Source: a virus
Length of the DNA stretch: 64,000 nucleotides
Direction: 5' to 3' (one strand)
Virus record (IMG/VR): IMGVR_UViG_3300030419_007641
Location: 132,878-196,877 of that record
How positions within the stretch are numbered: the stretch's first letter is position 1; every line of letters starts with the position of its first letter. The translations under genes were made by a program, and so were the position numbers. Below the pieces are notes generated by a model. That model saw only the letters and a program-made list of their open reading frames with translations, made no database searches and was not told the DNA's origin. Shown here in pieces: positions 11,513-41,114 of this stretch.

Positions 11513-12316
11513 ATGAATGAGTTTGATATAGTTATTGCAGTTGGTCCAAATGATGTTGATTATGTACACAATCAAATTAAGTGTACCAAAAAAAATATTG
11601 TTGGTTATAGGAATATTTACCTTATTCCCTATGATCCTACTTTTAAAATAGAGGGCTGCACTACTATTGCAGAGATAGAATTTCCATTTTCTAAGCAAAC
11701 AGTAGCTCAATATCACGGTAAATTAGAACGTAATGGTTGGTACTTGCAGCAATTGCTAAAGCTTTATGCAGGTATTATAATTCCAGGTATACTAGATAGG
11801 TATTTAGTTATTGATAGCGATACATACTTTGTAAAACCAACTTCATTTATTACTAGTGATAATAAATGTTTATATTCACATGGTAGTGATATTCATGGTC
11901 CATATTTTGATCATATGAAGCGGTTACATCCCTCTCTAAAGAGAGTAAATTACTCTGGTATATGTCATCATATGATGTTTGAAACAAAATATGTAGAGGA
12001 AATGTTCAGCTTAATTGAGGGTAATAAATCATCAGTACCATTTTATAAAATATTTTTAGAATGTGTAGATAAGGATGATTTTACATTATCCGGAGCCTCT
12101 GAATATGAAATATATCTTAACTATATGTTATTATATCACCCGGAATCTATTGAGATACGCTTTTTACCGAACGTGGAAGCTCGATTTAATAGAAACGGTA
12201 ATCAAGATCCGGATTGGAAAAAAAAGGCTCGCTTAACGTTAGGTGAAGATCTTGCAAATAGCCCCCCTAAAGAATGTGAAGGTCATAATTTTATCTCTTG
12301 CCATTGGTATAACTAA
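11513..12316 (+). CDS. DUF6492-like GT-A fold glycosyltransferase
   Basis: GWYLQQLLKLYA, YLVIDSD and SEYEIY motifs. Confidence 0.65.
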   Translation: MNEFDIVIAVGPNDVDYVHNQIKCTKKNIVGYRNIYLIPYDPTFKIEGCTTIAEIEFPFSKQTVAQYHGKLERNGWYLQQLLKLYAGIIIPGILDRYLVIDSDTYFVKPTSFITSDNKCLYSHGSDIHGPYFDHMKRLHPSLKRVNYSGICHHMMFETKYVEEMFSLIEGNKSSVPFYKIFLECVDKDDFTLSGASEYEIYLNYMLLYHPESIEIRFLPNVEARFNRNGNQDPDWKKKARLTLGEDLANSPPKECEGHNFISCHWYN

Positions 12317-12332
12317 CACATATATATATATT

Positions 12333-13091
12333 ATGAGAATTGCATTTTCAGGGACTGGTAATAGTGGTAAATCAACTCTTTTAAAGAGCTTTATGTATAC
12401 TTGGGATAATTATACCACTCCTAAAGAAACATATAGAGACGTTATTACTGAGGAAAATTTACAGCATTCATCTAACACTACAACAGATACCCAAGAAAAA
12501 ATCCTAAATTTTATGATTGATCAGCTTCAATTAAATGATAAGGATGATAAAATAGCTTATGATAGATGCCCATTAGATAATATTGCTTATTCAATGTGGT
12601 GTCATGATAAAGGCATTAAAGGATTTACAAAACAATTTGTAACTAAACAAATTGCTCTTATGAGAGAGTCAATGAGACATCTAGATATTGTTTTTTTATG
12701 TAGATTTGATGAAAAGCAAGCCGTTGAAGATGATGGATTTAGAGACACTGATATTAACTTTATTAAAGAGGTAGATAATATTTTTTATTCTTTATATAAT
12801 CAATATATTCAAAATCCAGAAGCAGATATATTTTTCCCTGCTGGTGATACCCCTTGTATATTACCGTTGCCAAATGATCAGCAACAACGTATTGATTTAA
12901 TTGCAGAGTATATTGCACCGGGTGGTGACTTAATTAGTGATGAAGAATCAATTCTAAATCCTAATAATTTAAACGAATTGGAGGCATTAGTTAGGGAGCA
13001 AAAGGCTGCACTCGAACAAGAAGAACGTGAAAAGGAATTGCAAAGAAAGTTTGGACTACCTGATGGAGGTTATCCACCAATAACGTTATGA
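12333..13091 (+). CDS. P-loop nucleotide (dNMP-type) kinase, AAA_28-like
   Basis: GTGNSGKST Walker A and DRCPLDNIAY motifs. Confidence 0.75.
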   Translation: MRIAFSGTGNSGKSTLLKSFMYTWDNYTTPKETYRDVITEENLQHSSNTTTDTQEKILNFMIDQLQLNDKDDKIAYDRCPLDNIAYSMWCHDKGIKGFTKQFVTKQIALMRESMRHLDIVFLCRFDEKQAVEDDGFRDTDINFIKEVDNIFYSLYNQYIQNPEADIFFPAGDTPCILPLPNDQQQRIDLIAEYIAPGGDLISDEESILNPNNLNELEALVREQKAALEQEEREKELQRKFGLPDGGYPPITL

Positions 13092-20901: not shown

Positions 20902-21925
20902 GAACATTCCTAGAGTTAGAAAAAAATTTAAAGCTGGTTATACATACCTTAATAGGAATATGATAATGGATTGTCACCCAGATCATATTTACCATAAGTT
21001 AATAAACACGTTTAAAGTTGAGGACCTACATCAATACCCAGATATGTTTCCGCCGTATGAGATTTTAAGCAAATATTTAAATGTTAGTGAAGATCAATTA
21101 TTATTAACCCGGGGGGTTGAAGGTTCAATTAAAACAATTTTTGAATCGTTAAATTTAAGTGGTGAATGTGTTGGGGTATTTGTACCCACATGTGCTATGT
21201 TTAAAGTATATGCTGATGTTTTTAATGTAAACTTTATACCTATTAAAGGACAAGCACCGGAATACAATATTAGTGTGCAGCAAGTTAAAAATGTAATACC
21301 AAAAATTAAAGTACTTTTTTTGACAAACCCAATGTCTCATTTAGAAAATTGTTTTTCTAATGAAGAGTTACAAGATCTAATTTATTTTTGTGAGAAGCAC
21401 AATGTTTTAGTTTTTTTAGATGAGGTATATACCGGGTGGGAAAATAAAAGTTATTTACCATTTTTAGAAAAACACGATAATCTTATTATATCCTCAAGCT
21501 TTTCTAAAATTGGATTTCCTTCAATAAAAACTGGCTGGCTAGCTTGTAATAAAAAATTAAAATGTCAACTTGAAGCTACGAGAGGAGCTTACGAACTAGA
21601 TTATTTCTCAAATAAAACTCTAGAATTTATTATTAATAACAAGGACTATTTTAAAGAACTAAAGAAAAATCTTTTAATCACAAAGAAAAAGTGGATTGAG
21701 TACTTCTCTGCTAATAGTAATTTTACTGTATATAATTCATCATTATATACTATAAGATTATACTCCGAAAATAAAGAGTTGGTCAAACATATATACGATA
21801 ATTTATATTCAAAAAAAATTGTAGTAAATGTACTCGATGAAACTAATTTACAATTCTCAGTATCTACAAATCAAGAAATAGAGAAATTGATTTTTAATGA
21901 AATTAAGGTAAATACTGACAAGTAA
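20894..21925 (+). CDS. PLP-dependent class I/II aminotransferase (HisC-like)
   Basis: TRGVEGSI, TNP, DEVY and SSFSKIG (PLP Lys) motifs. Confidence 0.85.
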   Translation: MVKNIPRVRKKFKAGYTYLNRNMIMDCHPDHIYHKLINTFKVEDLHQYPDMFPPYEILSKYLNVSEDQLLLTRGVEGSIKTIFESLNLSGECVGVFVPTCAMFKVYADVFNVNFIPIKGQAPEYNISVQQVKNVIPKIKVLFLTNPMSHLENCFSNEELQDLIYFCEKHNVLVFLDEVYTGWENKSYLPFLEKHDNLIISSSFSKIGFPSIKTGWLACNKKLKCQLEATRGAYELDYFSNKTLEFIINNKDYFKELKKNLLITKKKWIEYFSANSNFTVYNSSLYTIRLYSENKELVKHIYDNLYSKKIVVNVLDETNLQFSVSTNQEIEKLIFNEIKVNTDK

Positions 21926-22278
21926 TGAAGGCTGGAAAAATATGGGGGGAGACAGAATTACTCCACGCTAATGGTGTTTTAGAGTTTCATAGAATCCAAT
22001 TTAAAGAAAGGGCCCAATGCTCAAAGCATAAACATCAATTTAAATGGAATGGATTTTTTGTAGAATCTGGAGAACTATTAGTTCGTGTATGGTCAAGAGA
22101 GGATGAAATTGATGTTGATGTTGTAGATACTATTTTAAAGCCAGGAGACTTTATGCAAGTTAAGCCTGGACTGTATCATCAATTCGAAGGTATAAAAGCA
22201 GGTGTTGCCTTTGAATTATATTGGGCAGAGTTTAACCATGGTGATATAATAAGAGAAACTTTTGGAAAGGAAATTTAA
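21925..22278 (+). CDS. Cupin protein (mannose-6-phosphate isomerase type II-like)
   Basis: CSKHKH..KWNGF..ESG and PGLYHQF motifs. Confidence 0.75.
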   Translation: MKAGKIWGETELLHANGVLEFHRIQFKERAQCSKHKHQFKWNGFFVESGELLVRVWSREDEIDVDVVDTILKPGDFMQVKPGLYHQFEGIKAGVAFELYWAEFNHGDIIRETFGKEI

Positions 22279-23262: not shown

Positions 23263-24210
23263 GTGGCAGAGCAAGAACATAAAAATAGTGGGTTTTTCTA
23301 TAAACCATCAGGGGTAGCTAATGAAGAAACTCGTAAATGGTTGCCTAGAGATTTTGACTCAAAACTAATTACACATAGTGTAAAAAGAAATATAGATAGA
23401 AAGCGAACTTCAATTGATCACGTACATATGGTCAACAATGTACCGTTGTTTAGCTGGGTGGAGCTAAATCTAAATGAGCTATGCAATCGTAAATGTGCAT
23501 TTTGTCCCCGGAGTGGAGATTACCCTAATCAAAATATTCATATGGACCCGGGTCTAGCTGCAGCTATCGCACTGCAATTAGACGAGTTAGATTTTTCCGG
23601 GACAGTTAACATTAGCGGTACCGGTGAACCTCTCTTAACAAGAAACCTTCTTGAGATTGTAAAGTGTTTCTGTGATAGGCAAATAAGCATTGAGATTGTA
23701 ACAAATGGAGATAAGTTAAAACCAGCACTTATAAAAGATTTATATTCAATAGGTCTTTCACAACTAGTTGTGAGTATGTATGATGGGCCGGAACAGATAG
23801 ATTATTTTAATAACCTGTTTAAAGAGTGTAAAATTGATAAGTCTAAATACACGCTTCGAGATCGCTGGTACAGTGAAGATGAAGACTTTGGTTTAATTTA
23901 TACCAACCGTACTGGCGCGCAAAAAGAACTTAAAAAGGCTGCAACTAGGCCTTGTTATTACCCGCACTATGCTTTGTATATAGATTGGAATGGAGATGTT
24001 TTACTTTGTTGTCAAGATATGTATAATCGAACAGTTAAGTTTGGAAATGTAGCAGAAAAACCTATCTTTGATATATGGAGGGATAAGCGGTTAAGTGATT
24101 TTAGAAATAAGCTTAAAAATGGTCAACGTTGTCTATCTCCTTGTACAAATTGTGACGCAAATGGAATGTTATTTGGAAAAAATCACGCAGCAAAATGGCA
24201 AACTATATAA
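23263..24210 (+). CDS. Radical SAM/SPASM enzyme
   Basis: CNRKCAFC, GTGEP and TNG motifs; SPASM CYYP..GDVLLCC..CTNC. Confidence 0.9.
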   Translation: MAEQEHKNSGFFYKPSGVANEETRKWLPRDFDSKLITHSVKRNIDRKRTSIDHVHMVNNVPLFSWVELNLNELCNRKCAFCPRSGDYPNQNIHMDPGLAAAIALQLDELDFSGTVNISGTGEPLLTRNLLEIVKCFCDRQISIEIVTNGDKLKPALIKDLYSIGLSQLVVSMYDGPEQIDYFNNLFKECKIDKSKYTLRDRWYSEDEDFGLIYTNRTGAQKELKKAATRPCYYPHYALYIDWNGDVLLCCQDMYNRTVKFGNVAEKPIFDIWRDKRLSDFRNKLKNGQRCLSPCTNCDANGMLFGKNHAAKWQTI

Positions 24211-24950
24211 AAAAATATATTAATAGACATAGAGGTAAGCGGGCAATAGTGTGTGGTACGGGCCCTTCATTAAATGATATAAATTTTAATTTATTATCAG
24301 ATGATATAATTATTTTTGCATGTAACCAATCAGTAACTGCTTTGGATAAATGCGATTACTTTTGTATAGCTGATAACGCAATAATTTGTATGGACTTTTT
24401 TGAACATGGCGCTGAAATAGCTAATGAAGTTATAGTTATGGGCCCATTCAATAATGCAGAGGACCTTATGAGTAACAATCATGATTCTAAACAAAGAAGT
24501 AAATTTGTGGAATTAATTAAAAATAAATCAAAATTTTTTCCTAGAGGTAGCATGCTACCTTTTAATAAAACCGGACCTATTCTAAAAGGGCCTCCAGGAG
24601 AAGATGTCGTTCACATAACTTCTCATTTTGCTTACCTTTTGGGGTGTAGGGAGATAATTTTAGCAGGGGTTGATCTTACAATAGATAACGGTATATACTG
24701 CGAGTCTACTATATATAAAGAAGAGGTGAGATGGGATGGGATAGCTCATTATAATAATAATGACTTATTAAGTAACTCCTTTAACGTGTGGCAGCAGATT
24801 AAAGAAAGTAGTAATGATGTGAAATTTCTAAACGCGTCGCCCCGTGGTAGATTAAATGAAATATTTGATTCAATACCAATCGAATCATTGTATACAGTTA
24901 ATCTGGATCACCAAAAAAAAGCCAATCCGACATTCCTTTATCGTCAATAA
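24195..24950 (+). CDS. Maf/DUF115-like (sialyltransferase-fold) transferase
   Basis: IVCGTGPSL, IFACN, LGCREIILAGVD and NAS motifs. Confidence 0.65.
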   Translation: MANYIKKYINRHRGKRAIVCGTGPSLNDINFNLLSDDIIIFACNQSVTALDKCDYFCIADNAIICMDFFEHGAEIANEVIVMGPFNNAEDLMSNNHDSKQRSKFVELIKNKSKFFPRGSMLPFNKTGPILKGPPGEDVVHITSHFAYLLGCREIILAGVDLTIDNGIYCESTIYKEEVRWDGIAHYNNNDLLSNSFNVWQQIKESSNDVKFLNASPRGRLNEIFDSIPIESLYTVNLDHQKKANPTFLYRQ

Positions 24951-25236
24951 ATTTGTCGGCTCCTGGCTTACCTAGGAACAGTTGATGGTATTTTACATTC
25001 CAAGAATCTAATTGCTTTTTGGTAAAGTCATACATTTCCTCATGAGCTTTAGCCTGATCATTATTAGTTCTACCCATGCCTCTAGCAGTCATAAAGAAAA
25101 TAGTATGACCCTGGTCATATAGCTCATTAACCTTTTCTATCCTTTTTGTATGCGGTGTACTTTTATCGTAAGGTCCTCCGTCGGGGCTATGACAAATAGT
25201 ATTGTCAATATCAAAGCAATAAGTTAATTTATCCAT
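24898..25236 (-). CDS. HAD-superfamily phosphatase (capsule-cluster type)
   Basis: FDIDNT, TAR, GKP and IDDK motifs. Confidence 0.85.
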   Translation of the reverse strand: MDKLTYCFDIDNTICHSPDGGPYDKSTPHTKRIEKVNELYDQGHTIFFMTARGMGRTNNDQAKAHEEMYDFTKKQLDSWNVKYHQLFLGKPGADKFIDDKGMSDWLFFGDPD

Positions 25237-25892
25237 TCTTTAAAGTCTGTTAAAAATTGATCTACTGATGACTGGGTACCAGGATGTGCTGTACCTTCCT
25301 TTATTACATTATAACCAGCAGTTACAATATCTGCCCCGCTAGCCCATGCATCCGTAATATCTTTAGGTGTGCGAATACTACCTGCGATAATTTTGCAATT
25401 TAGGTTATTACTCTTAATAAATTTAGAAGCATCATCCAGTGTACGAAATTCATCTTCACCACTGTCTTTTGCTCTATTATAAAAAAATGAGACATATCGG
25501 GCGCCAGCCGCAGCAGCTAAAGTTAATTGTGAGGTAGTAAAACAACATGTACAATTAACGCGCGCCCCGACCGCAGCAAGTTTATTAATAGTCTCTAATT
25601 CATTAAATCCAACAGGTATTTTTATGTTTAAATTGTGGTAACCTATATCCTCCTCTAAACGCAAAGCCTGTTGATAAATTTCATTTTGATCAGTGGCAAA
25701 CACCTCAACACTAAGCGGAATGTTATTATATTTTTGACAAATTTCTGCAATTTTTATCATATGATTTACGTAACTACCCCGGGGTTCCTTAGACATTAAG
25801 GATGGGTTTGTAGTTACACCAGAAATAACTCCACGCTTACAAGCTGAGGAAATTTCATCAAGATTAGCAGTATCAATAAAGAGTTGTCGCAT
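25224..25892 (-). CDS. talC: Transaldolase (TalC/FSA family)
   Basis: FIDTA, GVTTNPSL, IKIP, VNCT and IAGSIR motifs. Confidence 0.92.
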   Translation of the reverse strand: MRQLFIDTANLDEISSACKRGVISGVTTNPSLMSKEPRGSYVNHMIKIAEICQKYNNIPLSVEVFATDQNEIYQQALRLEEDIGYHNLNIKIPVGFNELETINKLAAVGARVNCTCCFTTSQLTLAAAAGARYVSFFYNRAKDSGEDEFRTLDDASKFIKSNNLNCKIIAGSIRTPKDITDAWASGADIVTAGYNVIKEGTAHPGTQSSVDQFLTDFKEWIN

Positions 25893-25922
25893 ATCTATAT
25901 AATAGATATTAACCGTAATTTA

Positions 25923-26336
25923 TCAACTATCTTCAGTAAACTTATAGGTTTTACCATCCTCTACAATGTGAGAATCACCGTCGTCATCTTTGTTAGACCA
26001 CTCAATAATAATAGTATCCTCGAGGGCTATTCTCATATGCATTAGTCCAGGAGGTATGTGGTATACGTCGTTTTCCTCTAGTGTAACAGATGTGTTTTCC
26101 GCGCGACCGATGCGATGACCGACTTTTAGCTTACCAGAAAAAATATAATAAAATTCATCTTTATTGCAGTGGTACTCCATGCTACTTTGACTGCCCTTTT
26201 TCATAAAAATCTTCTTAAGGGCGAAGTCATCATCAGCAAAAACAGAGGTAATATAACCCCAATACTTATCCTTATGTAAAACAGGCTTTTGTATAGGGGG
26301 GAGATGCTGGATTCCAAATTCGTTATCTTTTTTCAT
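25923..26336 (-). CDS. Cupin protein (sugar isomerase-like)
   Basis: KYWG, SMEYHCNKDE.Y and PPGLMH motifs. Confidence 0.75.
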   Translation of the reverse strand: MKKDNEFGIQHLPPIQKPVLHKDKYWGYITSVFADDDFALKKIFMKKGSQSSMEYHCNKDEFYYIFSGKLKVGHRIGRAENTSVTLEENDVYHIPPGLMHMRIALEDTIIIEWSNKDDDGDSHIVEDGKTYKFTEDS

Positions 26337-27219
26337 ATCGCTCTTTAAATAGATCAAAACTAGGTGGCGTAGCTCCTTTAGTTTCTGTAGCTAGGCCTGC
26401 CCATAAATTACATTTATATAATACTTTTTCTACATCATGACTCCAATCTTGTGTTGATAACATTGCAATAAAACTATCACCGGCGCCGCATGTATCGACA
26501 ACCTCGGTATCGATACCCTGAACATGTATATTGTTAAATTTGCTGCCCCTCTCACCCAGCGTTTCTACAACTTGAGACTCGAACCATAAGAAAGAATCTG
26601 ATAATACTTTTGCTTCATCTTCATTTAGTACGGTTAAGTCGCATCCATTAAATTTTGATAATTGTAGGGAATTTTTACTTTCCCAGTCTGAAAGTTGAGT
26701 GTTAGCAATACATGGAATTTGCTGCTTCTTACATATGTTTATGATACTTGTTGTAATATTTTTAGATAATACACCACATCTATAATCACTTAAAATAACA
26801 CACTCATATTCTGGCAGTATATTAGTTAATTGACTAATTACTTCTTGTTCTGTATCCGTAGAGAGGTTGCTATCATCTGTATAATTCATCTGCAAATACT
26901 TGTGTTGCACATGAGTTTTTTCAACATAGTATCGTTGTTTTGAAGAGGTTTGTTTGTTAGTGGAAATAGAATATACATTTACTTTTTGCGCTAAATCATT
27001 ATATACATCGATGTCGCTACATATAGTCATATAACCAACATCGCGCTGTAAAGCAACTAAGTTCATTACAACATTACCCGACCCACCAGGAGTTTTTTTA
27101 GTGCTTGTATGTTCGCATTTTATTGTGGGCGATTCTAGCGAAAGACCTACAGCTTGACCGGTAATATACTCGTCAATTATTAAGTCCCCTATTACAAATA
27201 TTTTTTTTCTGTTAAGCAT
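26323..27219 (-). CDS. hldE: PfkB-family kinase, HldE/RfaE heptose-7-phosphate kinase-like
   Basis: VIGDLIIDEY, PGGSGNV, LSDY, N..E and DTCGAGDSF motifs. Confidence 0.8.
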   Translation of the reverse strand: MLNRKKIFVIGDLIIDEYITGQAVGLSLESPTIKCEHTSTKKTPGGSGNVVMNLVALQRDVGYMTICSDIDVYNDLAQKVNVYSISTNKQTSSKQRYYVEKTHVQHKYLQMNYTDDSNLSTDTEQEVISQLTNILPEYECVILSDYRCGVLSKNITTSIINICKKQQIPCIANTQLSDWESKNSLQLSKFNGCDLTVLNEDEAKVLSDSFLWFESQVVETLGERGSKFNNIHVQGIDTEVVDTCGAGDSFIAMLSTQDWSHDVEKVLYKCNLWAGLATETKGATPPSFDLFKERYEKR

Positions 27220-28072
27220 ATTGTTTAATTTTTTCTACGACTCTTGTTGTAGAATAAATATCCTGATCAAGTAATGACGCAACTTTTACATCGATATGAT
27301 TAGGAATATTATCTCGTTTACGAATTTCTGCTGCAGTAAATTCACCACCCTTAACAACAATATCTGGGTTAATATTACTAATAATATTTGTCGTGTTAGG
27401 TTCGTCGAAGATCACAACTTCATCGACAAGAGATATGTATGATAGTATTTTTTTACGATCATGCTGATTGTTTATAGGTCTCTGCGGGCCTTTAATTTTT
27501 TTAGTTGACTCGTCGGAGTTAATACCGACTACTAGTTTATCCCCTAAACTTTTTGCAAACTTTAATGTTTCTAAATGACCCGCGTGTAGTATATCAAATA
27601 CACCGTTAGTAAATACTATTGATTGTGGCTTGTGCCCTGAAATTTTTTCTACTCTTTTTACATGGCGACCTTCACCAAATTGGGTGCCGAGCCATTCGTT
27701 TAAAATTAATTTTGATGCCTTGGGCGTAGTTATCCAACTACCTAGACATAATATATTTGAATCATTGTGCTCTCTACATTTAGGAGCACTATCCAAATTA
27801 TGAATTAAAGAAGCTCTTACATTTTTAAATCGATTAGCAGCAATACTCATTCCTACTCCAGTACCACAAATTAAAATACCTCGTTCTATATCACCCCTAT
27901 CGATAATGTTTCCCATTTGATAAGCATAGTCAACATAATCTACGGACTCTTTAGTATACGGGCCAAGATCAATAGCATTAATTTTTTTTTGCCTTAAACA
28001 ATTATAAATAAAGTCTTTAAGATCAATGCCATTATGATCTGAGGCTATAGCGATTGATGTATCTAAATGCAT
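27212..28072 (-). CDS. Fusion of RpiB/LacAB isomerase and HldE-type heptose-1-phosphate adenylyltransferase
   Basis: N-half ASDHNG, DY.D, CGTGVGMSIAANR, HNDSN, GRH..RV; C-half FTNGVFDILHAGH, VGINSD, KG..RPIN, VKGG, STT. Confidence 0.88.
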   Translation of the reverse strand: MHLDTSIAIASDHNGIDLKDFIYNCLRQKKINAIDLGPYTKESVDYVDYAYQMGNIIDRGDIERGILICGTGVGMSIAANRFKNVRASLIHNLDSAPKCREHNDSNILCLGSWITTPKASKLILNEWLGTQFGEGRHVKRVEKISGHKPQSIVFTNGVFDILHAGHLETLKFAKSLGDKLVVGINSDESTKKIKGPQRPINNQHDRKKILSYISLVDEVVIFDEPNTTNIISNINPDIVVKGGEFTAAEIRKRDNIPNHIDVKVASLLDQDIYSTTRVVEKIKQYA

Positions 28073-28144
28073 CGTTTATTAGTATACTGACTAACCTAAA
28101 AAAGTCAACTATTGACTTCAGCTCAACTGCATTTAAATACTATT

Positions 28145-29002
28145 ATGGTTGGAATTATATGCAAAGATAAAGTTGCAGCATTAAATCCTAGCTTGTTTTT
28201 AAATTTTAGACTGGGATTAACTAACTACTTTGACACTAAATTCCATGAAGTAGATAGTGCAGAAGATCTTGAATATATTAATACATTAATTATTGTGGAT
28301 GAGCATTTTGGTCCACATGTATCTATATGGAAAGAGGATAAATTTATTAATAAGCTTAATAAACTTAATATAAGAACACTGGTCTTTAATTTTGAAAAAA
28401 TATTTTCTAGTAAATTTCCATGGAATGTAGATCATCAACAAAAACTAGAAACGATTAATAATATGTATCAGTTTGTTAGTGATGTAGATGACGCGATAAA
28501 ACTCGAAAAGCATGTTATTAATAAGCAATTACTGTCTAAAGATACGGAACTGGAGTATGACTATGCAGAGAAAAAAAATAGAATATTGTTTATAGGTCAA
28601 TCAGACCCTGCTTATAATCCGACCTGGTCATATTCTAGAAGATTTAGTATACTCAACGATTTAAGAAATCGAGTTGAGCTTCCGTTAGATGTCTGTATAA
28701 CAGAGAGAAAACTTTCATATAAAGAATTTTTAACTAAATTAGGTAGTTATAAATTTATCCTTAATCCGTTAGGTACGGGTGATTTTATAAATGTACGATT
28801 TTACGAAGCACTACAACTTGGGTGTATTCCTATACAACAAGTAACCGATAGCATGGTTAAATCATATTCCGAATTAACATCAAATATTTGTCACACCTTT
28901 AAAACATCTAATGAAGTTGAACTCCCCACCGGTTCTTTTAATAAATTTAGCTATTACTTAGAGGATTACTTTAAAGAAATTAACTTGAAAAATTATATTT
29001 GA
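28145..29002 (+). CDS. GT-B/exostosin-like glycosyltransferase
   Basis: LFIGQ and FILNPLG...RFYEALQLGCIPI motifs; TTAAATA immediately upstream. Confidence 0.65.
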   Translation: MVGIICKDKVAALNPSLFLNFRLGLTNYFDTKFHEVDSAEDLEYINTLIIVDEHFGPHVSIWKEDKFINKLNKLNIRTLVFNFEKIFSSKFPWNVDHQQKLETINNMYQFVSDVDDAIKLEKHVINKQLLSKDTELEYDYAEKKNRILFIGQSDPAYNPTWSYSRRFSILNDLRNRVELPLDVCITERKLSYKEFLTKLGSYKFILNPLGTGDFINVRFYEALQLGCIPIQQVTDSMVKSYSELTSNICHTFKTSNEVELPTGSFNKFSYYLEDYFKEINLKNYI

Positions 29003-29016
29003 TACTATAATATAGT

Positions 29017-29598
29017 ATGTTAATTAAGCAGAGTGTTTATGATGGTAAACTAATTCATGAGAGATTTGCCTATAAGTTTTTCCGGAAAGATGTTTCTCCA
29101 TATGGTGATATAGTGGCGTTTAGATCGCCGATGTACGTAAAAGATGCGTTGATTGATTTAGAGGACTCTTTAAGTGATGACTTTATTCATAGCCAAGATG
29201 CAATTAATTTTTGCTGGGAAATTCCTGGAATGTGTCCAATGGGCGCTGTATCCTTTCAGAGACTTTTTAACACTGCGATTGCTAATATTTTATCCGGTAT
29301 TATACAAAAACCAATTAGTATAGATGGTGATGATATTTCTGTGCAGGATAAATTTGTAGGTGGTGATGATAAGGTTAGAAGCGCCGGTAAAGCGAGTGTT
29401 TCTATTACATACTCTAAAGATAATGTAACTATCGGTCATACTGGTATTAACATTACCGCAGGAGATAAAGCACCGCCATTTGCCTATTCTACTAATCTCA
29501 CCGATGATCAAATTGATTATTTTATTAATTCAGTAATTCAATATTTTAATACTGAAGTACAAGATCAATTTGTTGCTACAACAAAAGTAATTGTATGA
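29017..29598 (+). CDS. DUF366-like protein (lipoate/biotin ligase fold)
   Basis: YDG, GDIVAF, I.S.DAINF..E, DGDDI, GKASVSI and HTGIN motifs. Confidence 0.6.
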   Translation: MLIKQSVYDGKLIHERFAYKFFRKDVSPYGDIVAFRSPMYVKDALIDLEDSLSDDFIHSQDAINFCWEIPGMCPMGAVSFQRLFNTAIANILSGIIQKPISIDGDDISVQDKFVGGDDKVRSAGKASVSITYSKDNVTIGHTGINITAGDKAPPFAYSTNLTDDQIDYFINSVIQYFNTEVQDQFVATTKVIV

Positions 29599-39587: not shown

Positions 39588-41114
39588 ATGAATAACAAAC
39601 CACAATCATTTATCGATAGAGATAGAGCAGACTTACTTCTTGAGAAGTGGGCACCTGTTCTTGACTATTCTTCTGATAGTGTTAAGCCCATTGAGGACGA
39701 TCATACCCGTTTAAATACTGCCATGCTTCTTGAGAACCAAGAAAAATGGTGTATTGAGGAAGGATCAACTGCAGGAGCAACTCCTGGAGGTTCTTTCGGT
39801 AACGGTGCTACTGTTGGTGGTGTATATAACCCCATTACCAACGATGTAAACTCCAGTGACTCTTATGCCACTGGTGATGCCCGTCTTCCAAAAGTGCTTA
39901 TTCCGATGATTCGTCGTACGTTCCCTGAGCTTATCACCAATGAAATCGTTGGTGTCCAGCCTATGTCAGGTCCTGTTGGACTTGCATTTGCCCTTCGTTA
40001 TGCTTATCAGTCCGAAAACTTAGGTACCGGTACTGATGGCACTACAACTCGCGATAGCAATACCGGTGCAGGAAATATTCCTAACACCCAAGCTACGTTA
40101 GATGAGTATAACGGAGCAGAAGGACTTCCCGCTGATGAACTTGGTTATCAATTGCTTGATACCCGGTTCACCGGTTCATCCTCTACGAGGTTGTCCGGTG
40201 CTGCAGACTGGTACTTTGCAGCACAAGATCAAGGTGTAGCTCAGATTCTTTCCGCTTTTGAGATTACTGGTAACATTCCTCAGGTTGAGGTTAAGTTCGA
40301 GAAAACAGCAGTTGAGGCCGGCACACGCCGTCTTGGCGCACGCTGGTCTGTCGAGCTTGAGCAAGACCTTAAGAACATGAATGGTATTGATATTGACGCC
40401 GAGATCACAAACGCTATGTCGTATGAGATTCAAGCTGAGATCGACCGTGAAATGCTCATGAGAATGATCCAGGCAGCTCTTGGTCAGGAAGGAACCGCCG
40501 GCTATTCTACATGGTCACCTGCTTCTGCAGATGGTCGTTGGATGGTTGAGCGTAATAGGGACTTTTATCAGCGTCTTATCATTGAAGCCAATCGCATTGC
40601 CGTACGTAACAGACGTGGAGCTGCTAACTTTGTTGTTGCTACTCCTCGTGTTTGCGCCATCCTTGAGATGCTCCCTGAATTCCAGTGGGTACCTGTACAA
40701 GGTGACGTAAATACTCAGCCTGTGGGTATTGCAAAGGTTGGTTCGCTTGGTGGAAGATTTAACGTTTACCGTGATACCAGAACTGAAGTACAGGGGAGTC
40801 CTAGTTATAACTCGCCAAGTTCAGAGGCATATTCTAGAGGAAGTGGAGGTGCACTCACCACTACTGGAATCGAGTATGCACTTCTTGGCTACAAGGGCCC
40901 TGAGTTCTACGATACTGGTATCATTTATTGTCCTTACATTCCTGTCATGGTACAGAGAACCATCGGTCCAAACGATTTTGCGCCACGCGTTGGCTTGCTT
41001 ACTCGTTATGGTGTTGTTGACAACATCTTTGGAGCGCATCTCTACTACCATGTCATTATTGTTCAGGGACTCGGTATCGCGTTCACTCCAGCTTCTCAGT
41101 CGGTGTACTTCTAA
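39588..41114 (+). CDS. gp23: Major capsid protein
   Basis: EKWAPVL, LENQE, RRTFPEL..VGVQPMSGP.GLAF, EIQAEIDRE, YCPYIP and TRYG motifs. Confidence 0.97.
   Translation: MNNKPQSFIDRDRADLLLEKWAPVLDYSSDSVKPIEDDHTRLNTAMLLENQEKWCIEEGSTAGATPGGSFGNGATVGGVYNPITNDVNSSDSYATGDARLPKVLIPMIRRTFPELITNEIVGVQPMSGPVGLAFALRYAYQSENLGTGTDGTTTRDSNTGAGNIPNTQATLDEYNGAEGLPADELGYQLLDTRFTGSSSTRLSGAADWYFAAQDQGVAQILSAFEITGNIPQVEVKFEKTAVEAGTRRLGARWSVELEQDLKNMNGIDIDAEITNAMSYEIQAEIDREMLMRMIQAALGQEGTAGYSTWSPASADGRWMVERNRDFYQRLIIEANRIAVRNRRGAANFVVATPRVCAILEMLPEFQWVPVQGDVNTQPVGIAKVGSLGGRFNVYRDTRTEVQGSPSYNSPSSEAYSRGSGGALTTTGIEYALLGYKGPEFYDTGIIYCPYIPVMVQRTIGPNDFAPRVGLLTRYGVVDNIFGAHLYYHVIIVQGLGIAFTPASQSVYF

Follow-up and report, generated by a model that had tools for sequence, protein, structure and literature searches.

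A transaldolase-containing gene cassette shared by a T4-like phage, archaea and bacteria that probably builds a nucleotide-activated seven- or eight-carbon sugar without its own GmhA

How can an operon that looks made for a nucleotide-activated heptose do without GmhA? The synthesis of nucleoside diphosphate (NDP)-heptoses is textbook biochemistry, and GmhA is regarded as its obligatory entry enzyme. The locus that raises the question lies in the IMG/VR virus record IMGVR_UViG_3300030419_007641, which is 196,877 bp long and estimated to be 93% complete. We analysed its last 64 kb (64,000 nucleotides), called the window below, and all positions without a locus prefix refer to it. An earlier note, made from the DNA letters alone, had described a five-gene run on the minus strand at 24898–28072; all the open reading frames (ORFs) were found at those positions, with the domains it had described. 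We consider it likely that these genes form a self-contained, horizontally mobile cassette that makes a nucleotide-activated higher-carbon aldose from central sugar phosphates; built de novo, this sugar would probably have seven or eight carbons. Its genes are:

27212–28072, minus strand: RpiB::nucleotidyltransferase fusion, 286 aa, with an RpiB-type and an HldE-domain-II-like domain
26323–27219, minus strand: PfkB-family sugar kinase, 298 aa, whose nearest counterpart is the heptose-7-phosphate 1-kinase domain of HldE/HldA
25923–26336, minus strand: 'cupA', a metal cupin with a single domain, 137 aa when read from the ATG at 26336
25224–25892, minus strand: short-form transaldolase, 222 aa, assigned to a cassette-specific subfamily
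24898–25236, minus strand: minimal HAD phosphatase, 112 aa, with a DxDxT motif

Neighbouring genes overlap by 8–14 nt, apart from one 30-nt gap (25893–25922), and the catalytic motifs are intact in all five proteins.

The arrangement is far beyond chance, because 20 loci, counted after removal of duplicates, have this gene set. The order is the same in nearly all of them: RpiB::nucleotidyltransferase, PfkB kinase, an optional class II aldolase-family gene, cupin, transaldolase and small HAD. Sixteen of the loci are from phages (the window and 15 others), and the rest belong to a Pacearchaeote, a deltaproteobacterium, an acidobacterium and a Pelagibacteraceae single-cell genome (SAR11). The neighbourhoods examined first were those of the Pacearchaeote (L003), the deltaproteobacterial metagenome-assembled genome (MAG; L004) and three marine phage-like contigs (L005–L007). 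Further loci came from scans of genome and viral collections: an Acidobacteriaceae MAG (L008), the Pelagibacteraceae genome (L009) and, with lengths of up to 200 kb, 15 contigs from IMG/VR. No locus lacked the fusion, the kinase or the cupin, and the transaldolase was present in 18, the other two loci being cut short. The optional class II aldolase-family gene, a homologue of AraD-type L-ribulose-5-phosphate 4-epimerase (275.8 bits vs a cut-off of 257), was carried by 15 of the 20; it was absent from the window phage, L088, L099, L003 and L008. Variant cassettes had two nucleotidyltransferase domains or a nucleotidyltransferase::HAD fusion.

The fusion itself had been called unusual in the earlier note, a description that, in the sense of rare, did not survive the architecture search. 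In a set of 5.8 billion clustered proteins, all of the best 120 clusters had the RpiB+CTP_transf_like architecture, with 57–100% identity to the window protein, so that the arrangement is widespread and conserved. The named carriers among these clusters were Pacearchaeota, Woesearchaeota, Nanoarchaeota and a deltaproteobacterium. The window sequence grouped with L088 in a tree built from the fusion proteins. The next grouping, which was weakly supported, joined them to DPANN and deltaproteobacterial sequences and not to the main marine phage set; with this weak support, the phage copies do not look monophyletic. Among 301 genomes sampled from the class of the Pacearchaeote, just one had the fusion, namely the starting genome itself, and with this single carrier no correlation between the cassette and transketolase loss could be drawn across DPANN relatives. 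The distribution fits an accessory, mobile glycan module.

The absence of GmhA, claimed by the earlier note, was upheld beyond the window. Searches of the whole 196,877-bp record with the SIS and SIS_2 profiles (PF01380, PF13580) gave no match, and the controls in the same search matched as expected. SIS_2 was likewise missing from five other cassette-bearing phage records, two of which are at least 90% complete, and from the 1.0-Mb Pacearchaeota genome that carries the cassette. We must also note that two cyanophage genes bear the name of the missing enzyme. Gp130 of S-SSM7 (L001:10052–10387), annotated as 'phosphoheptose isomerase', is 51% identical to the window HAD and has the same DxDxT motif, and 'phosphoheptose isomerase 1' of S-T4 (L002:8921–9268) is also a small HAD phosphatase. 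Judged by these motifs, the cyanophage 'phosphoheptose isomerase' (label group phrog_1238) is a HAD phosphatase, and its name is an annotation error, which hides the lack of GmhA in these phages.

The N-terminal half of the fusion is a LacAB_rpiB domain (aa 7–144, approximately nt 27641–28054), which scored 163 bits against PF02502 (cut-off 24.7) and 150.1 bits against TIGR01120 rpiB, above the equivalog cut-off of 138.65. Aligned to E. coli RpiB (1nn4), it has kept the catalytic and phosphate-binding set Asp12, His13, Cys69, Thr71, His102, Asn103, Arg136, His137 and Arg140, including two C-terminal phosphate-binding Arg residues. Position 113, in M. tuberculosis numbering, differs: it is Trp in 100% of 115 fused copies, vs Arg in 84% of 110 stand-alone RpiBs. 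Asn14, Gln52 and Gly133-Glu134 are further residues specific to the fused clade. Three cassette-bearing bacteria have both forms, a separate RpiB with Arg113 and the fused copy with Trp113, and no RpiA was found in these three. In RpiB from M. tuberculosis, Arg113 binds the phosphate and partly covers the tunnel-shaped substrate pocket, whereas LacAB, a hexose-phosphate enzyme, does not use Arg113 and has a longer, open pocket (PMC3755991). The loss of this clamp residue would be expected if the domain took a different, probably longer sugar phosphate. By these residues, the fused RpiB is a specialised paralogue whose phosphate site has changed.

The C-terminal half of the fusion is a CTP_transf_like domain (aa 154–280, approximately nt 27233–27613; 69.7 bits against PF01467) with the HxGH and STT nucleotidyltransferase motifs. 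Its best NCBIfam family was TIGR02199 rfaE_dom_II, the heptose-1-phosphate adenylyltransferase. Some homologues (P0005, P0006 and P0025; 441–469 aa) have two nucleotidyltransferase domains, in the order RpiB-NT-NT or NT-RpiB-NT (NT, nucleotidyltransferase), and the module of cyanophage S-SSM7 likewise has two nucleotidyltransferase genes.

The cupin is listed among the ORFs from a TTG at 26357 (25923–26357); from the alignment of homologues and the DNA, the ATG at 26336 is more likely to be the true start, giving the 137-aa protein. Its identity across archaea, bacteria and phages is 42–64%, with the invariant motifs KYWG and E-x-H...E...H, and the phage protein is the counterpart of the C-terminal domain of cellular bicupins of ~260 aa. 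It passed PF01050 MannoseP_isomer, the profile for the catalytic domain of type II phosphomannose isomerase (PMI), marginally, with 24.2 bits vs a gathering cut-off of 23.6. The same profile was matched by 15 of 17 family members (best E 1.1e-7), D-lyxose isomerase was matched by three, and the Atlas neighbours of the cupin bear the same two labels, PMI and D-lyxose isomerase. Against PDB sequences, the cupin profile gave only marginal matches. An AlphaFold2 model (pLDDT 94) matched a broad range of cupin folds about equally well, among them those of the CapF epimerase (Z 15.3), Thermococcus PMI (Z 14.4), D-lyxose isomerase (Z 13.8) and cupin phosphoglucose isomerase (Z 12.6), so that the fold speaks neither for nor against an isomerase. 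We regard the cupin as a candidate PMI-type ketose/aldose phosphate isomerase. By stereochemical reasoning, a PMI-type enzyme acting on sedoheptulose-7-phosphate would give the same manno configuration as GmhA.

The transaldolase matched PF00923 (TAL_FSA) with 138 bits and the transaldolase equivalog TIGR00875 with 151.7 bits, short of the cut-off of 245.95. Its best relatives in the PDB are the true transaldolases 3r8r, 1vpx and 3s0c, with which Asp7, Glu63, the Schiff-base Lys91 and Phe135 align. We take Glu, and Phe before the conserved Arg, to be the family markers of transaldolases, vs Gln and Tyr in fructose-6-phosphate aldolase (FSA). A reading of the protein as an FSA was rejected, as it has Glu and Phe where FSA has Gln and Tyr. 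The 18 cassette transaldolases have the motif S-x-F-Y-N-R vs the canonical SPFVGR, with Phe and Arg invariant and Tyr and Asn in at least 80%. The gene is the sole transaldolase gene in the phage genome and its product is ~35% identical to cyanophage TalC. By these signatures, the protein is a member of a cassette-specific subfamily and not cyanophage TalC. The suggestion of the earlier note, that the enzyme would serve sugar building instead of the usual cyanophage role, gained support from the cross-domain synteny as well as from this identity and the absence of a second transaldolase gene.

The kinase (62 bits against PfkB, PF00294) has the GAGD and NxxE motifs. Its best family was TIGR02198 rfaE_dom_I, and its sole PDB relative was the heptose-7-phosphate kinase HldA from Burkholderia (4e84, E 1.7e-8). 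We propose that it would act as an anomeric (O1) kinase. In the HAD protein, the motifs FDIDNT (DxDxT), TAR and GKP...DD are conserved across 17 cassette members. The nearest named subfamily was the EcbF-BcbF capsule phosphatase (TIGR01689, E 6e-8), and the PDB entry 9iqw, a 'capsule biosynthesis protein', matched with E 6e-12. A GmhB-like role is proposed, in which the enzyme would strip the terminal phosphate from a sugar bisphosphate.

Starting from the domain identities, motifs, synteny, GmhA absence and clade-specific active-site changes that are direct results of the analysis, we infer the following substrates, products and order of steps. The transaldolase would move a dihydroxyacetone unit from fructose-6-phosphate to an aldose phosphate, giving a ketose phosphate; with erythrose-4-phosphate as the acceptor this would be sedoheptulose-7-phosphate, and with ribose-5-phosphate octulose-8-phosphate. 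A non-SIS isomerase, for which the PMI-like cupin is our first choice, would then convert the ketose phosphate into an aldose phosphate in place of GmhA. The specialised RpiB-like domain might carry out a second ketose/aldose conversion or supply the acceptor. Next, the HldE-like PfkB kinase would phosphorylate O1, the small HAD would remove the distal phosphate, and the HldE-domain-II-like domain would join the sugar-1-phosphate to a nucleotide. The product is most likely ADP-linked and intended for the glycosyltransferases of the surrounding island. A gene of the heptosyltransferase family GT9 adjoins the cassette in all four cellular loci. These neighbours, taken together with the others described below, suggest that the product is tied to ADP-heptose-type chemistry, yet that the cassette is not a plain second copy of the standard pathway. 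Within this general model, we give roughly an even chance to a heptose and a little over a quarter to an octose, and leave the rest to something else. The heptose is favoured because the kinase, the nucleotidyltransferase and the GT9 genes next to the cassette are homologous to heptose enzymes, and because heptoses are common.

Several results weigh against the proposed route, or against a heptose as its product. A heptose route needs one isomerase, yet two are invariably present, and an octose route fits the parts at least as neatly. The kinase scored 130.7 bits against TIGR02198, far under the equivalog cut-off of 345, and the nucleotidyltransferase 145.4 bits against TIGR02199, under its cut-off of 181.5. 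The fold search with the cupin did not discriminate, as dozens of cupins lay at Z 12–15 with epimerases, isomerases and dioxygenases interleaved, and its top match was the domain of CapF, a nucleotide-sugar epimerase. In the phage, the sole match to the GT9 profile PF01075 lay outside the window and scored 11.6 bits. Missing steps could come from the host. A canonical bifunctional HldE and a GmhB-like HAD adjoin the cassette in the acidobacterial locus L008, and in the SAR11 locus L009 a GmhA-like SIS_2 gene lies two genes upstream; GmhA may still serve where it is available. With a GmhA-like gene and an HldE beside the cassette, its product may well not be simply ADP-D,D-manno-heptose. The earlier note had proposed that every step except GmhA is present and that the RpiB domain or the cupin substitutes for it. 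The gene content agrees with this, and both substitutes are credible in view of the altered RpiB phosphate site and the PF01050 match; the identification of the kinase and nucleotidyltransferase steps stands less firmly, both enzymes being under the HldE cut-offs.

The most serious competitor to a heptose is an octose. Here RpiB would give ribose-5-phosphate from ribulose-5-phosphate, the transaldolase would use it with fructose-6-phosphate to form octulose-8-phosphate, and the cupin would convert this to octose-8-phosphate, from which the kinase, the phosphatase and the nucleotidyltransferase would make an NDP-octose as in lincomycin synthesis. All six activities would each be used exactly once, both isomerases included. 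In the RpiB domain no catalytic residue is missing, and its score exceeds the rpiB equivalog cut-off. There is also a precedent: in the GDP-octose route to lincomycin, LmbR, LmbN, LmbP, LmbK and LmbO act as transaldolase, isomerase, kinase, phosphatase and nucleotidyltransferase (PMC12945683), and LmbR takes fructose-6-phosphate or sedoheptulose-7-phosphate as the donor and ribose-5-phosphate as the acceptor (PMC5854111). In the Pacearchaeota genome (L003; GCA_038740375.1, genome G006, ~1.0 Mb), the fused RpiB is the only Rpi, and no transketolase, ribulose-phosphate 3-epimerase (Rpe), RpiA or SIS_2/GmhA was found, leaving no evident source of erythrose-4-phosphate; these absences come from a genome without a completeness estimate. 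However, no fused copy retains the phosphate-clamp Arg113, a loss that is strange in a plain ribose-5-phosphate isomerase, and the cassette-bearing bacteria already own a housekeeping RpiB. The kinase, the nucleotidyltransferase and the neighbouring GT9 are most like heptose enzymes, and octoses are rare in known glycans. Weighing these points, we hold the octose route to be doubtful. A broader statement, which we would make only tentatively from the sequences, is that the cassette could be a widespread way of making an octose (or a non-manno heptose) in nucleotide-activated form from ribose-5-phosphate together with fructose-6-phosphate via a dedicated transaldolase, in which the Trp113 RpiB and the PMI-like cupin would have two new isomerase specificities.

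It is also conceivable, if unlikely, that the product is a heptose of different stereochemistry. The Trp113 RpiB would in that case be a sedoheptulose-7-phosphate isomerase with C2 opposite to that set by GmhA (gluco, or galacto after the optional AraD-like 4-epimerase), and the cupin a later epimerase acting on a sugar phosphate or a nucleotide sugar. This would agree with a dedicated RpiB paralogue whose phosphate site has been reshaped, with the related LacAB, which handles longer 3S,4S ketose phosphates without Arg113 (PMC3755991), and with the AraD-type 4-epimerase in 15 of the 20 cassettes, which would turn a 3S,4R ketose into a tagatose-like 3S,4S one. The best fold match of the cupin, CapF, is an epimerase domain, but its sequence matches are PMI and lyxose isomerases and not epimerases. 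Moreover, epimerisation of the CapF type needs a 4-keto sugar and the cassette contains no dehydrogenase, and we did not find RpiB activity on heptulose phosphates documented in the literature consulted. Far less probable still are ordinary auxiliary metabolic genes, with RpiB and the transaldolase boosting the host pentose-phosphate pathway for nucleotides, as has been suggested for talC of cyanophages, beside an rfaE-like lipopolysaccharide (LPS) module that uses the host GmhA. It is true that talC is common in cyanophages, and that 'rfaE' and heptose genes have been counted among the LPS-related auxiliary genes in publications on pelagimyophages and cyanophages. Nevertheless, the RpiB is covalently fused to a nucleotidyltransferase, the set of six activities keeps its synteny across archaea, bacteria and several lineages of phages, and both RpiB and the transaldolase have cassette-specific signatures, the latter with only 35% identity to cyanophage TalC. 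Bacteria also keep separate housekeeping RpiBs. Together, the fusion, the conserved gene order and the signatures peculiar to the clade led us to reject this explanation.

A conserved cassette shared across domains of life does without GmhA and brings its own transaldolase and two isomerase folds, one of them a re-tooled RpiB. If the proposed route is confirmed, it would be a non-orthologous entry into the synthesis of higher-sugar nucleotides and would give a function to a large 'RpiB' and 'cupin' gene family that is now mislabelled in databases. It would also mean that a phage transaldolase can serve glycan building and not the supply of NADPH or ribose, and it would offer a handle on the surface sugars of abundant marine myophages and ultra-small archaea. 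Should the octose route be true, marine phages, SAR11 and DPANN archaea would have eight-carbon neutral sugars in their glycans.

The cassette lies on the minus strand inside a plus-strand island rich in glycosyltransferase-like genes. The island belongs to a large marine T4-like myophage, whose major head protein (39588–41114) matches phrog_138, with only ~34% identity to cyanophage gp23. The 3.2-kb cassette region had no DNA relatives by blastn against phage records. Searches with phmmer found neither a GT9 nor an AraD-like gene in the window phage, and the AraD-like profile PF00596 had no match there. Two promoter-like sites precede cassette genes:

28081–28108, minus strand: sigma-70-like match TTGACT-16-TATACT, ending 8 nt before the ATG of the fusion
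25899–25926, minus strand: sigma-70-like match TTGATA-16-TATTAT in the sole intergenic gap, ending 6 nt before the ATG of the transaldolase

Read on the minus strand (28108–28081 and 25926–25899), each site agrees with 10 of the 12 consensus positions. In the close relative L088, both hexamers and the spacing of the site at 28081–28108 are kept, and the site at 25899–25926 is identical. The sites are exactly as first reported, whereas their description as early-type promoters is a matter of consensus matches, of which the region has 19 vs 16.7 ± 3.8 in shuffled sequence, that is, no excess. Both −10 hexamers stand only 6–8 nt before an ATG (28073–28111 and 25893–25922); if the sites were real, the transcripts would be near-leaderless, with no space for a Shine-Dalgarno sequence.

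Several neighbours in the island deserve mention. A second small cupin (21925–22278, plus strand, 117 aa) is 28–33% identical to the 'cupB' cupin found directly 3' of the HAD gene in the phage cassettes L005, L090, L092, L093 and L097, and may be a displaced member of an extended cassette. A radical SAM/SPASM gene (23263–24210, plus strand) has homologues near the cassette in L003 (Pacearchaeota) and in the phages L088 and L096; its product may be a tailoring enzyme for the cassette sugar. Convergent with the HAD gene, and overlapping it by 53 nt, is a gene for an MptE-like/Maf-like (DUF115) protein (24195–24950, plus strand) with a weak match to the sialyltransferase CST-I, a candidate protein glycosyltransferase. 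Divergent from the cassette are genes for a weakly GT47/exostosin-like protein (28112–29002, plus strand) and for a DUF366 protein, of a family of unknown function (29017–29598, plus strand). A P-loop AAA_28 NTPase or kinase-like gene (12243–13091, plus strand) stands amid a glycosyltransferase run. In the cellular loci, the vicinity of the cassette in L003 contains a nucleotidyltransferase::HAD fusion, a GT9+GT2 fusion and STT3 genes. Upstream of the cassette in SAR11 (L009:1947–7255), an SDR epimerase, an HpcH/HpaI aldolase, a CMP-sugar synthetase-type cytidylyltransferase, the GmhA-like SIS_2 protein and GT9 are encoded, which suggests that this island has a second sugar pathway.

In the literature on phage heptose genes, RpiB and cupin isomerases, we found no published description of the cassette, the fusion or a non-SIS entry isomerase. 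The closest phage relatives are the split rfaE-like modules of cyanomyophages (S-SSM7 gp126–131 and S-T4). They share with the cassette a PfkB kinase and the small HAD (51% identity), and their HldE-II-like nucleotidyltransferase stands alone. Like the cassette, these modules and the 'rfaE' genes of pelagimyophages are situated where T4-like marine phages have their hypervariable glycosylation region. However, the annotated stretches examined contain no RpiB, cupin or in-module transaldolase, and the kinase is only 21% identical to that of the cassette. Within the RpiB/LacAB family, the fused domain has the full catalytic set and passes the family cut-offs, whereas all fused copies carry Trp in place of the phosphate-binding Arg113.

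The pathway to ADP-D-glycero-β-D-manno-heptose (GmhA, HldE or HldA+HldC, and GmhB) follows the same kinase, phosphatase and nucleotidyltransferase logic. For the kinase and nucleotidyltransferase of the cassette, the nearest counterparts are domains I and II of HldE and the structures of HldA and HldC, and GT9 genes flank the cassette in cellular genomes. The cassette differs in having an RpiB-type domain and a PMI-like cupin instead of the SIS-fold GmhA, a dedicated transaldolase in the operon, a 112-aa HAD of the EcbF/BcbF type and not GmhB, and a nucleotidyltransferase that is fused to RpiB and not to the kinase. Compared by function only, and not by sequence, the lincomycin route shares the same five activities with the cassette, including a pathway-dedicated transaldolase. 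Its isomerase, LmbN, is of the SIS type. The Lmb genes belong to an antibiotic cluster, whereas the cassette is found in the glycan islands of phages, DPANN archaea and bacteria.

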